Virus record (IMG/VR): IMGVR_UViG_2897352509_000007
Direction: 5' to 3' (one strand)
Source: a virus
Lineage: Duplodnaviria > Heunggongvirae > Uroviricota > Caudoviricetes
DNA length: 64,000 bases
Every line of letters begins with the position of its first letter. Within the stretch, counting starts at the first letter, position 1. The position numbers were made by a program. Below are positions 42,901 to 48,900 of this stretch, piece after piece.

Positions 42901-45900
42901 ACATCCTGGAGTCCGATGAGAATGGTATTATTCCGGAGCAGGACAGGGTAATCACGCAGGTGGTGATACTGGATGCGGATAAAAAGCAGATACAGTGCGT
43001 GGTAAGACCGCTGCAAATCCTGCGTGCTGACGGGACGTGGGAAAATATTGGCGGGATGAAGTAACCCGACAGCTTCACAAAACCGGAGTCCGGCTCCGGT
43101 TTTTGTTGTCATGTAAGGCAGATGTTTGTTAAAGCTATTTAAGTCTGGAGTTTAAATTAAAATAGGGAGTTTTATAATGCCGTTAAATTCGGAGATTAGA
43201 TCAAGCTCATTTTTAATGGATTGAATGTCCTTCGAGCTCAAGTAGCATCTAGCGGTCGAGGGGAGTTTACATTAGGTAATGAGACTGTCAGCATTGTATT
43301 TAATGAAACCGATGGGCGTTTTCTATCCAGCGGCAGTAGTGGGGGATTGCTTACTGAGTTATTCCTTTATGGGTTTAATAACGGCCCTGAAGCTCTTCGC
43401 GATAGGATGCTCAGTATGCTTTCGGACTCAGGTGAAGCACAATCGCAAGAGAGTATTCAGGACAAAATATCTCAATGTAAGTTTCCTGTTAGTTCAGGAA
43501 ATTTCCAGTGCCCGCCAGAGTCTATTCAGTGTCCAATTACACTAGAGAGACCCGAAGAAGGAGTGTTTGTCAAAAATTCAGATAGTTCGGCAGTATGCTG
43601 CTTATTTGATTTTGATGCATTTTCTCGTTTAGCTAGTGAAGGCTCATATCATCCACTGACCCGAGAACCAATAACGGCATCAATGATTATAAGTCCTGAT
43701 AAATGTGTTTATGATCCTATCAAGGGAAACTTCATTATAAAAGATAGTTAAAATATTTTTCTCTGAGAGAGTATTGGCTGTCAGTAATTTGTAAAAAAAC
43801 GCCGCAGACATCCAGAATATAAGAAGGTGTCTGTGGTTGGCAGGTTTCAGATGACTTGAAGGCGTCTTTATGTAAATGCATTTTTCTGTGGAGATGTTGT
43901 CGGAAAATATTGGATTAAAAACATAATCCAAGTCAAATAGTAAGTTTGTTTTTTTTGAGATTAGGTGTGTGTATTTAGAATTTTTATGATGTGTTTGTTT
44001 TGTGGGGTATTTTAGAAAAAATATATTAATCCTTATTAATAATAGCTGCCATCCATTTCAGCTATTATTTTAAAATAAACAAGTTAAAGCTTAGACTCTT
44101 GTTTCTTGGATTATATCAAAGATATCAACATGATTTGATGGATTATGATGTGGTAAGCCATTGCTTTCGATATCGATTACCACATCCTCTGGATTTGGAT
44201 GCCGCTGTCCAACAGGGATACCTTCTTCCATTGCGCGTATATCAGCACCTGTGGCATGTTCAATATCTGCTTTATTGGGGAAAATAGCTCCTTCTCTTGC
44301 GTGCCACCATATACGAGGATAGTCAGTGAATCTAGCTACTTCAAACTCGGCCTTGTTTAAATCGGCAGCCCCCAGTGTCGCACCAGCCCACCATAAAATA
44401 GTGTCTGGCTTTAATCCAGGGGTATTATACTGTATAGCATGCCCTGCTGCTTGCCCAACCATTGCACCGATATGAGGACTTAACATTGGATCTGTACTAG
44501 CAAATCTGGATACTGCAAATCCCCCTAAAGCACCAAGCGCATTTGCGGCAGCATTGGTAAGAACGGCATATTTAGTATTAGGGTTATCTAAATCCCACTT
44601 GAAATGTGCGCCAAACTCCAGCCCTAGAGTTGCCTGTAATGGAGATGCACCATATTTAAAATCTGCTTCTCCCGGTCTGATAACCCACTCCTCCGTGTAA
44701 TTTGCTTTCGGCCCATCAGGAGTAAGTGGTGTTTCTCCAACAAGCTTCCATCCATTTTCAGTTTTGACTATAGGAAGTTCTACACCATGATTACGAACCA
44801 CTTGAGCTGTTAATCCAAACCATGGTATTGGGTCTTTTGGCTCGGTGGTTACCGTCGAAGTAGTGGCTGATGTTCCAGTCGATGCAATAGTCGACACTGC
44901 AGTGGTTGATATATTACTGTTGCTTAATGCATTTTTTAACGGGCCAGGAAGGTCTTTAAAATTAAAACCTATTTCATCATGCAGAGGGAATATCTGTAAA
45001 AAATAATTACCTGATGTAGGATGAATATCTGGTTTTACAATGTTTAGCTGGACACCATATTTACCAGAGATGCCTGAAACGGAACTAGGTATCTCTAATG
45101 CCATTTGGGTAACATTGAATAAACCAAACATATCCAATGTTTTTTTTCCTATGGATCCTTCTTCAAGGTGAGGAGCTATATATTCGTCTAGCCCTGAGAG
45201 CAGACCTTTATCTTTTATCAAGCTCAGTAGAGCTGTTGTTTCACCGCATTCCGGTGCATGTTGCTGTATATCATCTGGAATATTAACAACAAATCCAGCT
45301 TGGCATCCTAGAGGTAATTCGGATTGCGGTATTTGTGTAGAGGGTATTTGTTCTGTTTGATGATGTTGATTGTTTTGTGAGGTGATTCCAGATTGTATGG
45401 TCGGTTGAATGTTCATAATAAATCCTTATTACATGTTTATATCCATTAATAATATCAATCCATTGATACTATTAGTGTCACATATCCGATGTGGACAGCT
45501 TTAATATATAACTGTTTGAATGCTTGATTGATGTGACTTAGATCTCAAAATTAAGTTGTTAAATTTACCAGTTTATCGCTTGAACACTTAAAATAAATTA
45601 TAAATGTTTCTGTTATTGTTTTTTATAGTTTAAATTATTGTTGGTTGTATAAGCTGATTACATTTTTACTCTAAGTGTTATAAATATTTTATACTGATAT
45701 TAGTCTTATTATATATTTTTTTAATGAAAATGAGCATAAAACTAAGACATATAATGCTTGGCAGCTTTATGCTCTTCTGATTGGCTGTATGTTTGATGAC
45801 AAAAAATTAGCGCAAGAGGACAAAAAATCACCTTGCGCTAATGCTCTGTCTCAGGTCACTAATCACATCTAACTCATTGATTAATTGTGACTCTAAATGT

Positions 45901-48900
45901 AGTGTTTTGTCGCGTTTTGCAGTCTATCATTTAATCAATTGTATAAATAACATAATGATTTTTAATGTGTTTTTGTGATTTTATCCTCCTTCTGACATGG
46001 AAGTTGTTCGTTCAAAAATCTTATTAAATATCAAGTTGTTAAATCTGGTAAGTCATTATTGGTCAAAATAAAATCATTATCCGATTTCAATTTTGTCCCA
46101 CTCCCGCCCGCGACTGTCCCTATAATGCGCCGCCATTGAATCAGATTTATGTCCAAGAAGACGTTGTGCAAACTTGTAGCCAATCTGGTTCCGATATAGC
46201 CTCGCGGACAGACTACGTAGTTCATGAAATGTCGGTGGGTCTCCATCAAACGAGATCCCGGATGCATTTCGCGCCTTTGTTAAATACCGTGATACTGTGG
46301 CTGGAGAAAGTGGTTCGTGATAGGTTGATGCGATTATTGTTTCACTGCTGCTGGCCTCCCTGCATTTCTGTAGTGTATCAACCAGTGAGATGTCGAGTGC
46401 GTCAATGGTTAGAGCCAGCGGAATGGCAATTTTGGCTCCTGTTTTACTCTGTCCAATGTGAAGATGACCATCGTTTATGTCTGACCACTTCATTCTGCAC
46501 AAATCGCCCACTCTCTGCCCTGTAACGACAGCTAAATCCATTGACAGCCTCAGCCAGATGGGGAGGTGCTCAGCAGCATGGTAAATAGCGACATACTCAT
46601 TAGCTGTCAGCCTTGAGCGCCTTACTTCTGACTTTGCTGCACGGGTTGTTGTTACTGGATTCGTTGCCACATGCCCCTCGGCTATTGCCCCTCGAAAAAC
46701 GTCAACAAGGGTTGACCTGATTACTCTTGCGGAAACCGCTTTACCTTCTGCGACGTAGGTGTTTAGCATTGCTGCCACCTCTTTCGTTGATATGTCAGTG
46801 AGCGGTTTGTCCGGCAATTTTCTTCGAATTGCCCTGATTTTGCTGGCGTAGTCGAGTAATGTTTTCGGCTTGCTCCCCCTCTAGCTGAGGATTGTTTCAT
46901 ATCGATCAAGCCACGTATGAAGAGTGATTGAGTCAGTGCCTTTAACCCTGTCCAGCAATGATTCGTGCCCACTTTCGCTGAAAAGCTCAATGTTGGTGTG
47001 AATGCTTCTGAAATTGCTACTCTTCTGTCTCTTCCCAGCCCGAACTCTTTTTTCGTCCTCGGGTCAGTGTGTAGTAAGACCGCTGCAAATCCTGCGTGCT
47101 GACGGGAAGTGGGAAAATATTGGCGAAATGAAGTAACCCGATAGCTTCACAAAAACCGGAGTCCGGCTCCGGTTTTTGTTGTCATGTATGGGGGATGTCT
47201 GTTAGGAATAATTAGATAGGTTTATTTTGAAGGTTGAAATGTATGTTATCGCCCTCTTCTATAAATTTGGGATGTTCATGGAATTCTTTAACCAGAAACC
47301 TGACTTCGCCTGATAATCGTGTTTTATCCTCTGTAAGGGATGCTGCTGTTCACTCTGATAGCGGGACGCAAGTAACGGTTGGCAACAGAACATATCGTGT
47401 TGTGGTCACTGATAATAAGTTTTGCGTTACAAGAGAAAGTCATAGTGGTTGTTTTACTAATCTGTTGCACAGGTTGGGATGGCCTAAGGGAGAGATTAGC
47501 AGAAAAATTGAGGCTATGCTGAATACATCGCCAGTGAGCACGACTATAGAAAGAGGCTCTGTTCATTCGAACAGACCTGATTTACCTCCAGTGGATTATG
47601 CGCAGCCGGAGTTACCTCCAGCGGATTATACTCAATCAGAGTTGCCGAGGGTTAGCAACAATAAATCACCCGTGCCAGGTAATGTTATTGGTAAAGGTGG
47701 TAATGCTGTCGTGTATGAAGATATGGAAGATACAACAAAAGTGTTGAAGATGTTTACTATATCTCAAAGCCATGAAGAGGTGACAAGCGAAGTTCGTTGT
47801 TTCAATCAGTATTATGGTTCCGGGAGTGCAGAGAAAATATATAATGATAATGGAAATGTTATTGGTATTAGAATGAATAAAATAAATGGGGAATCTCTTT
47901 TGGATATTCCATCATTACCAGCACAAGCTGAACAGGCTATTTACGATATGTTTGACAGACTGGAGAAAAAAGGAATTCTTTTTGTTGATACAACAGAAAC
48001 AAATGTTTTATATGATCGTATGAGAAATGAATTTAATCCAATAGATATATCATCTTATAATGTTTCTGATATTTCATGGAGTGAACATCAAGTCATGCAA
48101 TCTTATCACGGAGGAAAGCTGGATCTTATTAGTGTAGTATTAAGTAAGATATAATATTTTTATCCAGATATATTAGTTGCAATAATATTTATGGATTTAT
48201 TTGTTAAGGGGGTTTTGATATGTTACCAACAAGTGGTTCTTCAGCAAATCTTTATTCATGGATGTATGTATCAGGAAGAGGTAACCCTTCGACTCCGGAA
48301 TCAGTAAGTGAGCTTAATCATAATCACTTTCTTTCTCCTGAATTACAAGATAAACTTGATGTTATGGTCTCTATATATTCATGTGCCAGAAATAATAATG
48401 AGCTTGAGGAAATTTTTCAAGAGCTAAGTGCTTTTGTAAGTGGGCTGATGGATAAGAGAAATAGTGTATTTGAGGTGAGAAATGAAAATACTGATGAGGT
48501 TGTCGGAGCGCTGAGGGCGGGAATGACGATAGAGGACAGGGATAGTTATATCAGGGATCTTTTTTTTCTGCATTCATTGAAAGTAAAAATTGAGGAAAGT
48601 AGACAAGGCAAAGAAGATTCGAAATGTAAAGTTTATAATCTGCTATGTCCGCATCACTCTTCAGAGCTATATGGTGATCTACGAGCAATGAAATGCCTCG
48701 TGGAAGGATGCAGTGATGATTTTAATCCTTTTGATATTATTAGGGTACCAGATCTTACTTACAACAAAGGATCTTTACAATGTGGATGATTAGAGGCCTG
48801 TGAGCCTGTTTAGGATTCTGTGTAAATGCCTTTTCTTAAAAGTGACCGTCAAGACGGTCACCAAACTCGATAATAAAGCGGCTCATTGCCATTCGCCAGT

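Follow-up and report, generated by a model that had tools for sequence, protein, structure and literature searches.

Lambda-type integration modules and the ompW prophages

In phage lambda, tI/sib is a hairpin followed by a U-run, and it terminates the integrase transcript made from pI. Anti-terminated read-through from pL yields a longer sib stem that is cleaved by RNase III, whereupon the int mRNA is destroyed (retroregulation). P1 and P2, two arm-type sites for Int, lie in the neighbouring P arm of attP. The sib retroregulation mechanism is attributed to Schindler and Echols (1981), as cited in PMC5300877.

The closest described prophages are the lambda-like ones integrated in ompW (Nakamura et al. 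2021, PMC8112680). They carry the effectors nleA, nleH, nleF, espM and nleG, and their effector locus has short pieces of the E. coli chromosome (yecE, ykgJ/ecpE, ompW) at its end; ybhB, ybhC and bioA are not mentioned in the main text of the paper. The DNA analysed here, a window of 64,000 nucleotides (IMG/VR record IMGVR_UViG_2897352509_000007), belongs with them. It is a lambdoid E. coli O157 prophage with effectors of the same set, integrated at ompW by an integrase of its own that is of a different kind and targets ompW, and the 21-bp attB-in-PP_1 of PMC8112680 is present at 57783-57803.

Within this prophage lie two copies of a block which a sequence-only reading had taken for a promoter or operator module of effector genes, or else for the end of an unrecognised mobile element that delivers them. 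We consider it highly probable that the block is the cargo-side end of a lambda-type integration module (sib/tI hairpin plus attP P arm), and that the copies are relics of earlier phage right ends. Unlike the sites described in PMC8112680, these relics are of lambda-type attP and attR, not potential attB sites, and they are found between effector cassettes, not at the distal end of the locus.

The repeated block and its lambda counterpart

A repeat search of the window identifies one direct-repeat family with two copies of 142 nt that are 77% identical, at 45792-45933 (copy A) and 49471-49612 (copy B). Their layout is the same (Table 1). Two arms of an inverted repeat, TTAGCGCAAG and CTTGCGCTAA in copy A, are separated by a 15-nt spacer and followed by CAGGTCACTAAT and then by TTGCAGT (45917-45923 in copy A, 49586-49592 in copy B). 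The left arm of copy B, TTAGTGCAAG, has a single mismatch to that of copy A. The window has exactly two occurrences of the 32-nt pattern CTTGCGCTAATGCTCTGNNNCAGGTCACTAAT, with zero expected from 100 shuffles even when 3 mismatches are allowed. The repeated block and its internal inverted repeat had thus been recognised correctly, as had its surroundings. Copy A, first placed 380-510 bp upstream of nleA (44091-45416, minus strand), is found 381-514 bp upstream of the start codon, and copy B, assigned to the junction with an IS256-family remnant, begins at 49471, immediately after the pseudogene ORF of that remnant ends at 49470.

The homology reaches beyond the coordinates first proposed. Both copies are homologous to lambda 27,501/27,529-27,742, which comprises the minus-strand tI/sib hairpin and the attP P arm with its sites P1 and P2. 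Positions 45764-46165 align with lambda 27,501-27,900 and the collinearity continues through int, so that copy A is collinear with lambda over 45764-47077. Copy B aligns over 49471-49685 with lambda 27,529-27,742 at 80% identity and has a chromosomal flank in addition. The Int-binding features and the crossover core of the lambda record fall in exactly the matched stretch, and both copies align to lambda 27,583-27,634, where 'int 1' and 'int 2' are annotated. P1, CAGGTCACTAAT, is identical in the two copies; P2 departs from the arm-site consensus of lambda by one mismatch in copy B and two in copy A. The core follows at a lambda-like distance from P1 and is succeeded by a P' arm and int in copy A, or by bacterial DNA in copy B. 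The hairpin and its U-run stand on the int-coding strand just past the P arm, in copy B only in a weakened form.

Other phage records agree. In HK97 the matching stretch is annotated 'sib retroregulation site' on the complement strand, with the 'attachment site core' and int coming after it. In HK022 it is annotated 'attP', the annotation starting at the position that matches P1. The block also occupies real prophage ends: in a K-12 lambda lysogen it has ea59 on one side and ybhB on the other, and in O157 Sakai it is at the Sp3 attR adjoining ybhB. It is, in short, an already known element, the classical lambda att/int module.

The abrupt start of copy B at the end of the IS256-family pseudogene would also fit a terminal repeat of an IS or a MITE, for instance the end of that very remnant. 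Copy A, however, has no neighbouring IS. The copies are direct repeats without flanking target duplications, the inverted repeat with its 15-nt spacer is internal to the block, the block follows lambda sib-attP collinearly for more than 200 nt, and it also occurs in intact phages that have no IS. At copy B the remnant simply replaces the cargo-side sequence past the U-run. An IS or MITE end is practically out of the question; the refuting case foreseen for the effector hypothesis, a known IS terminal repeat, was not found, its place being taken by a known phage att site linked to effectors by position alone (see below).

Table 1. Features of the two relic attachment sites and of the adjoining cassette boundaries (window coordinates)
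Feature	Position	Strand	Details
Cassette 1 left boundary	42993..43131	+	3' end of tail-fibre C-terminal gene plus hairpin; repeats D3, D7
Copy A tI/sib hairpin	45798..45847	-	Stems 45807-45816 and 45832-45841; U-run 45801-45806; aligns to lambda 27,53x-27,582
Copy A P arm	45852..45986	+	P1 CAGGTCACTAAT 45852-45863; P2 region 45879-45898; counterparts of lambda 'int 1' and 'int 2' at 45847-45866 and 45879-45898
Copy A core (crossover) region	45987..46002	+	Aligns to lambda core 27724-27738, sequence diverged
Copy A P' arm	46040..46080	+	Three arm-type sites AAGTCATTAT, TGGTCAAAAT, AAATCATTAT; aligns to lambda P' arm ...AGGTCACTATCAGTCAAAATAAAATCATTAT
Decayed lambda-type integrase pseudogene	46077..47077	-	3' end abuts P' arm
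Cassette 2 left boundary	47065..47204	+	Stranded fragment of tail-fibre C-terminal gene plus same hairpin as cassette 1
Copy B tI/sib hairpin, weakened	49477..49526	-	Stems 49486-49495 and 49511-49520; U-run 49480-49485; aligned to lambda
Copy B P arm	49531..49667	+	P1 49531-49542; P2 region 49558-49577
Copy B core	49668..49681	+	GCTTTTTATACTAA; maps to lambda misc_recomb 27724-27738 and to empty MG1655 attB
Copy B B' arm and first part of captured ybhC-ybhB intergenic flank	49682..49717	+	Matches empty MG1655 attB region (807331-807417)
ISEc8 (IS66 family), inserted in captured flank	49718..52159	-	Sakai repeat_region 1807305-1809746 maps here; 8-bp target duplication GTTTTTCG at 49710-49717 and 52160-52167
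Second part of captured ybhC-ybhB flank	52168..52198	+	After ISEc8; BLAST 96% over 28 nt to MG1655

Copy A, an apparent fossil attP

To judge from its sequence, copy A is a complete but decayed, unrecombined attP in the phage form, in which sib, the P arm, a non-lambda core, the P' arm and an integrase pseudogene succeed one another. The P' arm sites are named after those of lambda attP. The stems of the copy A hairpin are identical in sequence to those of lambda sib/tI; the U-run is present, and the position, on the int strand and just outside the P arm, is the same. The predicted stability of the minus-strand hairpin (-17.5 kcal/mol) is close to that of lambda (-17.7 kcal/mol). Copy A is likewise predicted to form the extended, read-through stem (-29.4 kcal/mol; lambda, -24.3 kcal/mol), while in copy B it is largely lost (-14.7 kcal/mol).

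P1 and the P1-to-core spacing are those of lambda attP and P2 is near-identical, but the core of copy A is different. Its homology to a true attR beside an ibs toxin gene in strain Z1323CEC0001 stops at about 46005. This one related prophage suggests that the cognate attB of copy A is the site beside the ibs gene. Unlike in lambda, the integrase that sib would target is a pseudogene. It shares 68.5% identity with lambda 27,528-28,814 over 1,300 nt. RefSeq annotates a tyrosine recombinase here with a frameshift, an internal stop and a missing N-terminus, and in Sakai the gene corresponds to the 'integrase' pseudogene ECs_1813. Neither copy has a functional cognate integrase, and copy B has no integrase next to it. 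Both can probably no longer recombine in cis. The copy A hairpin, as modelled, would still terminate minus-strand transcription heading to nleA.

A strong hairpin with a U-run at the end of a CA-rich strand could also be the 3' end of a small RNA. The block would then encode a minus-strand prophage sRNA with its own promoter, possibly a sponge of GcvB like AgvB. A promoter-like TTAAAA-16-TACAAT does stand just upstream on the minus strand (45965-45938), and the minus strand of copy B has CACAACA (49583-49577), which PMC4104026 gives as the GcvB R1 target consensus. However, copy A lacks this heptamer, and a promoter scan found 8 sites where 12.1 were expected from shuffles, fewer than by chance. 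An Rfam search of the block gave no match at E<=1, and Table S2 of PMC4104026 has no Hfq-crosslinking peak at the corresponding Sakai coordinates. According to the same source, members of the AgvB/AsxR family are 51-60 nt long, occupy the PR' moron site and have a different conserved 3' part. Homology to sib-attP already accounts for every feature of the block, and an sRNA gene is very unlikely. Two sRNA groups were considered by name and set aside. AgvB/AsxR-type anti-sRNAs, suggested by the CA-rich minus strand and the terminator, lie at the opposite prophage end, in addition to the missing Rfam hit and Hfq peak. Of the Pas sRNAs (bioRxiv 10.64898/2026.05.13.724894), PasA/C/D, judged by their described neighbours (Q, RusA, holin/lysozyme), seem to belong to another prophage region, an argument that does not extend to PasB.

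Copy B, an apparent fossil attR

The order of elements in copy B (P arm, lambda core, B' arm) marks it as what appears to be a fossil attR of the lambda attachment site, later split by ISEc8. The P arm is 81% identical to that of the Sakai Sp3 attR adjoining ybhB. As in a lambda attR at ybhC-ybhB, the lambda core is followed by the B' arm and then by the same flank as in the K-12 lambda lysogen and at Sakai Sp3, and it is here that phage lambda diverges from copy B. After ISEc8 and one copy of its target duplication had been removed for the alignment, core and flank together matched the empty MG1655 attB at 72 of 79 aligned positions, with one 8-nt gap. The captured ybhC-ybhB DNA amounts to about 73 bp.

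The differences from a lambda attR are equally clear. Copy B lies inside an ompW prophage and not at ybhB; its core has one T fewer than that of lambda (the TTTATAC overlap is kept), its flank has suffered the 8-nt deletion, and ISEc8 has inserted into it. Its hairpin differs from lambda sib/tI in a C.A mismatch in the minus-strand stem (predicted at -12.3 kcal/mol), in the lack of an integrase, and in the IS256-family remnant that has replaced the sequence beyond the U-run. A search of the window for a ybhC-side (B arm) relic, the sign of an old attL, found none.

Relation to effector genes

The position of copy A upstream of nleA, with a second copy in the same effector locus, is what had suggested a promoter or operator module in which a T3SS regulator binds the inverted repeat. 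Indeed, a regulatory inverted repeat, NRIR, is common to some of the nle genes (PMC7142665). In that review, however, nleA is treated as regulated by Ler and is set against nleB2, an NRIR gene. The block, moreover, is several hundred bp away from the nleA start. Copy B is downstream of nleF with the IS remnant in between, and it is followed by ISEc8 and by no effector gene. On the minus strand, where a T-run follows the inverted repeat, the arrangement is that of an intrinsic terminator. The block is also present in lambda, HK97, HK022, 434 and phi80, which have no annotated effector gene at the matched locus.

The wide search for the motif that had been proposed as a check points the same way. 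Among viral contigs, a homologue of the tested T3SS effectors lies within 6 kb of the block in only 19 of 76 occurrences. The block is matched in 2,066 of 5,426 complete E. coli genomes, where its neighbours include such non-effector cargo as a diguanylate cyclase, O-antigen modification genes and lambda ea59. Conservation starts at the U-run, and the cargo side varies among 30 flank variants. Across 77 viral-contig homologues covariation gives no support for the hairpin, its stems being invariant. Among the hits listed by a literature search for nleA promoter mapping, none was usable. A specific association, as for an effector regulatory element such as NRIR, was not found, and an effector promoter or operator is extremely unlikely.

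Since many genomes, and lambda itself, have the block next to cargo other than effectors, and only a minority of its occurrences are near effectors, its link to effectors is only positional: the cargo slot extends from the tail-fibre genes to attP, and the block stands at its right edge. The promoter or operator proposal of the sequence-only reading is not supported, given the homology to lambda sib/tI and attP. Its other proposal is correct in substance, as the block is indeed the att end of lambdoid phages whose cargo slot holds effectors; the element is the classical lambda att/int module and so was not an unrecognised one.

Assembly of the effector locus

Because the host prophage uses a different integrase and sits in ompW, both copies of the lambda-type module are best read as relics of earlier phage right ends. 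Each relic closes a cargo cassette that starts at the 3' end of a tail-fibre gene: copy A a first cassette, nleG'-nleA, and copy B a second, nleH1-2-nleF. The two left boundaries are direct repeats (D3 and D7) with 92-93% identity. That of cassette 2 abuts the truncated integrase pseudogene, and RefSeq has a partial 'phage tail fiber C-terminal domain' pseudogene there. The repeat is not a universal left boundary of the cargo slot: it is present upstream of only 15 of the 76 viral-contig occurrences of the block, and hence is specific to this tail-fibre type.

An attR relic that retains 73 bp of ybhC-ybhB, with the bio-side flank only, points to one of two routes. One is aberrant excision of the lambda-bio type, the other integration into a captured chromosomal att followed by deletion. 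By either, end cargo (nleH1-2, nleF) would become internal cargo. The conserved flanks, the tail-fibre end on one side and the sib/P1 block on the other, presumably allow exchange of effector cassettes by homologous recombination, and may act as homology arms in cassette swapping. In the same cell, the near-intact lambda core of copy B could be a substrate for Int/Xis of Sp3. A joint reading combines these elements: the relics would be the seams of stacked right ends from at least three different lambdoid prophages, with homology arms for swapping and a copy B core that Sp3 Int/Xis could still use. We put this forward tentatively, as a possibility rather than the expected outcome.

Biological meaning

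The identification of sib/tI and the attP P arm removes a candidate regulatory motif from the effector genes. In its place it provides unannotated relic att sites, which mark where one former phage end gives way to the next in an exchangeable effector locus and which complement the published prophage-in-prophage model. For nleA, the copy A hairpin may be a shield against transcription out of the adjacent integrase relic. Copy B, which still holds chromosomal DNA of the lambda site, is a concrete footprint of the build-up of type III effectors in lambdoid phages.

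Identification of the repeated block

The block singled out in the sequence-only reading is present in two copies with the same internal layout. In copy A, on the nleA side, TTAGCGCAAG-N15-CTTGCGCTAA occupies 45807-45841, CAGGTCACTAAT 45852-45863 and TTGCAGT 45917-45923; the corresponding elements of copy B lie at 49486-49520 (one mismatch to copy A in the left arm), 49531-49542 and 49586-49592. A repeat search of the window delimits the two copies as a direct repeat of 142 nt with 77% identity (45792-45933 and 49471-49612). The 64 kb contain exactly two occurrences of a 32-nt pattern that covers the right arm and CAGGTCACTAAT, where shuffled sequences are expected to contain none. 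The reported neighbourhood also holds: the position of nleA (see the table) puts copy A 381-514 bp upstream of the gene, and copy B starts one base after the end, at 49470, of the pseudogene ORF of the IS256-family remnant.

Features of the locus (positions in the window)
Feature	Position	Strand	Remarks
Prophage's own integrase	3-1133	minus	
Tail fibre, then tail-fibre C-terminal gene	end near 43064		first after tail genes
Left cassette boundaries	42993-43131 and 47065-47204		92-93% identity; GC-rich hairpin AAAACCGGAGTCCGGCTCCGGTTTT
nleG-family pseudogene			between tail-fibre C-terminal gene and nleA
nleA	44091-45416	minus	between nleG-family pseudogene and copy A
Copy A core region	45987-46002		after P arm; sequence unlike lambda core
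Copy A P' arm, three arm-type sites	46050-46080		after core
Integrase pseudogene stop codon	46077-46079		after P' arm sites
Tyrosine-recombinase pseudogene		minus	directly after copy A in order
Tail-fibre C-terminal gene fragment, stranded			between tyrosine-recombinase pseudogene and nleH1-2
nleH1-2, nleF, then IS256-family remnant			left of copy B
Copy B core GCTTTTTATACTAA	49668-49681		after P arm; then TTGAGCGAAAC and more sequence
8-bp target duplication GTTTTTCG	49710-49717 and 52160-52167		either side of ISEc8
ISEc8	49718-52159		splits copy B flank
Copy B flank, continued	52168-52198		past ISEc8
ISEc8, then more effector genes			right of copy B
Split ompW fragment	58104-58229		

Copy A is matched at 3,550 places in 2,066 of 5,426 complete E. 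coli genomes, K-12 derivatives included (sensitive BLAST), and no annotated feature lies under the block in the matched genomes. In a K-12 strain the match falls between lambda b-region genes (525-aa AAA ATPase, ea59) and ybhB-bioA, where a lambda prophage has its right end. Window 45764-46165 aligns with lambda 27,501-27,900, and the collinearity extends through int (window 47077 corresponds to lambda 28,814; 68.5% identity over 1,300 nt), while window 49471-49685 aligns with lambda 27,529-27,742 at about 80%. In the lambda reference record, Int-binding features are annotated at 27583-27602 and 27615-27634; the crossover core spans 27724-27738, and the int gene 27812-28882. Copy A is matched by 78 phage records, among them lambda, 434, HK022, HK97 and phi80. 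The counterpart of window 45798-45847 is annotated in HK97, on the complement strand, as 'sib retroregulation site', after which come 'attachment site core' and then int; in HK022 the 'attP' label starts at the P1 position. The lambda, HK97 and HK022 matches identify the inverted repeat as the sib/tI hairpin and CAGGTCACTAAT as the P1 arm-type Int site. The block is thus an already known element, left unannotated in the matched genomes. The earlier suggestion of a mobile-element end came close in this respect. That the block should be the end of an IS has next to no chance of being correct, since copy A is without an IS and the block is collinear with intact phages.

On the minus strand, the one that encodes the integrase, a U-run follows the hairpin. 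In lambda, tI terminates the int transcript, and RNase III cuts the longer sib stem of the pL read-through RNA. The downstream element sib reduces int expression from pL in that phage (Schindler and Echols 1981, as cited in PMC5300877). In the predicted fold of the read-through RNA, the U-run pairs with upstream purines and lengthens the stem. Folding energies of the hairpin and of the read-through RNA are -17.5 and -29.4 kcal/mol for copy A, -17.7 and -24.3 kcal/mol for lambda, and -12.3 and -14.7 kcal/mol for copy B, which carries a C.A mismatch.

A small RNA encoded by the block is very unlikely: an Rfam search of the block gives no match, a scan for promoters finds no more sites than shuffled sequence does, location and size are unlike those of the AgvB/AsxR family, and neither Sakai 1,803,384-1,803,517 nor 1,807,062-1,807,192 has a listed Hfq peak. 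The regulatory half of the earlier proposal, an effector promoter or operator, found no support and is extremely unlikely. The repeat has the form of a terminator, the distribution of the block (see below) contradicts such a role, and a review describes nleA as Ler-regulated, setting it against the NRIR gene nleB2 (PMC7142665).

Copy A as a fossil attP

Copy A is a fossil attP, in the unrecombined phage form because both of its arms are of phage type. Strain Z1323CEC0001 shares its nleG-nleA cargo, hairpin and P1 with the window; the two are near-identical as far as about 45865 and roughly 78% identical beyond. Homology stops at about 46005, where Z1323CEC0001 runs into an ibs toxin gene (type I) and yegL; this ibs/yegL junction is a true attR. 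The comparison indicates that the att type of copy A is really used elsewhere, and it places a mosaic joint within the P arm of attP, at about 45865.

Copy B as a fossil attR with chromosomal flank

Phage lambda diverges from copy B after the core. The sequence that follows matches instead the attR flanks of a K-12 lysogen and of prophage Sp3 of strain Sakai, beside ybhB. Once ISEc8 and one copy of the duplication are removed, core and flank are identical to MG1655 at 72 of 79 aligned positions, the reference being the empty ybhC-ybhB intergenic region (807331-807417), aligned with one 8-nt gap. A search of the whole window for ybhC-side sequence found none. Copy B is a fossil attR that retains chromosomal DNA. 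A third copy of the block in O157 genomes presumably represents the real attR of Sp3, beside ybhB. The GcvB R1 target consensus, CACAACA, occurs in the P arm of copy B (49577-49583, minus strand) and at the homologous position in lambda and Sp3, and is absent from copy A; it is probably coincidental.

The block as the edge of a cargo slot

A P1-pattern scan of viral contigs yields 77 occurrences. The hairpin stems are invariant among them and conservation starts at the U-run; on the cargo side, beyond the U-run, there are 30 flank variants. On the core side, stored sequence ends within 2.1 kb in 60 of the 77. The proposed association with effector genes did not survive this survey: only 19 of 76 occurrences have a homologue of NleA, NleB2, NleC, NleD, NleF, NleG, NleH or EspM1 no more than 6 kb away on the cargo side. 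Blocks adjacent to ybhB come after a diguanylate cyclase in one strain and after genes of the gtrA/yfdH type in a second, and a torT-adjacent block comes after a hypothetical gene; in HK97 the gap between tfa and sib is only 230 nt. The block thus has no specificity for effectors; it marks the right edge of a lambdoid cargo slot that extends from the tail-fibre genes to attP. In attaching-and-effacing E. coli, effector genes fill this slot (exchangeable effector loci; PMC8112680).

The two effector cassettes of the window, nleG'-nleA and nleH1-2-nleF, with cargoes of 2,666 nt and 2,271 nt, are bounded alike: on the left by the 3' end of a tail-fibre C-terminal gene with a hairpin, on the right by the sib/P-arm block. 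The second left boundary is a stranded fragment touching the truncated integrase pseudogene. This type of left boundary is not universal, since only 15 of 76 occurrences have it upstream. Conserved flanks would permit cassette exchange by homologous recombination, and the mosaic joint at about 45865 is consistent with such exchange.

Host prophage and history of the locus

Genomes of E. coli O157:H7 match the window, and over 37780-53970 strain JEONG-1266 is 100% identical to it. The prophage around the block is lambda-like, corresponds to Sakai Sp9 and is integrated in ompW. A second prophage begins directly after the ompW fragment, where JEONG-1266 and Sakai have yciE; its integrase region (58275-59773) is 99.5% identical to 1-1499 at the left end, so that the source strain has two prophages one behind the other at ompW. 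Collagen-like repeats with a 9-nt period in the tail-fibre gene (42275-42549) encode Gly-X-Y. Downstream of espM1, a low-scoring Rfam match to CssrB (Shigella sRNA B; 54896-54990, plus strand; 26.3 bits against a gathering threshold of 76, E = 0.07) is likely due to chance.

The ompW prophage carries, one after the other, an attP in phage form whose integrase is dead, a lambda-site attR with its bio-side chromosomal flank and, further right, attB-in-PP_1, whose 21 bp (GTCATGCAGTTAAAGTGGCGG) are found as an exact copy at 57783-57803. The last is of chromosomal origin and is described as derived from yecE and as the place where Stx phages enter ompW prophages (Nakamura et al. 2021, PMC8112680). 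This series fits a history in which the right ends of prophages would have been captured one after another in the ompW prophage. Capture could have proceeded by lambda-bio-type aberrant excision, or by integration into an att sequence captured beforehand and a later deletion.
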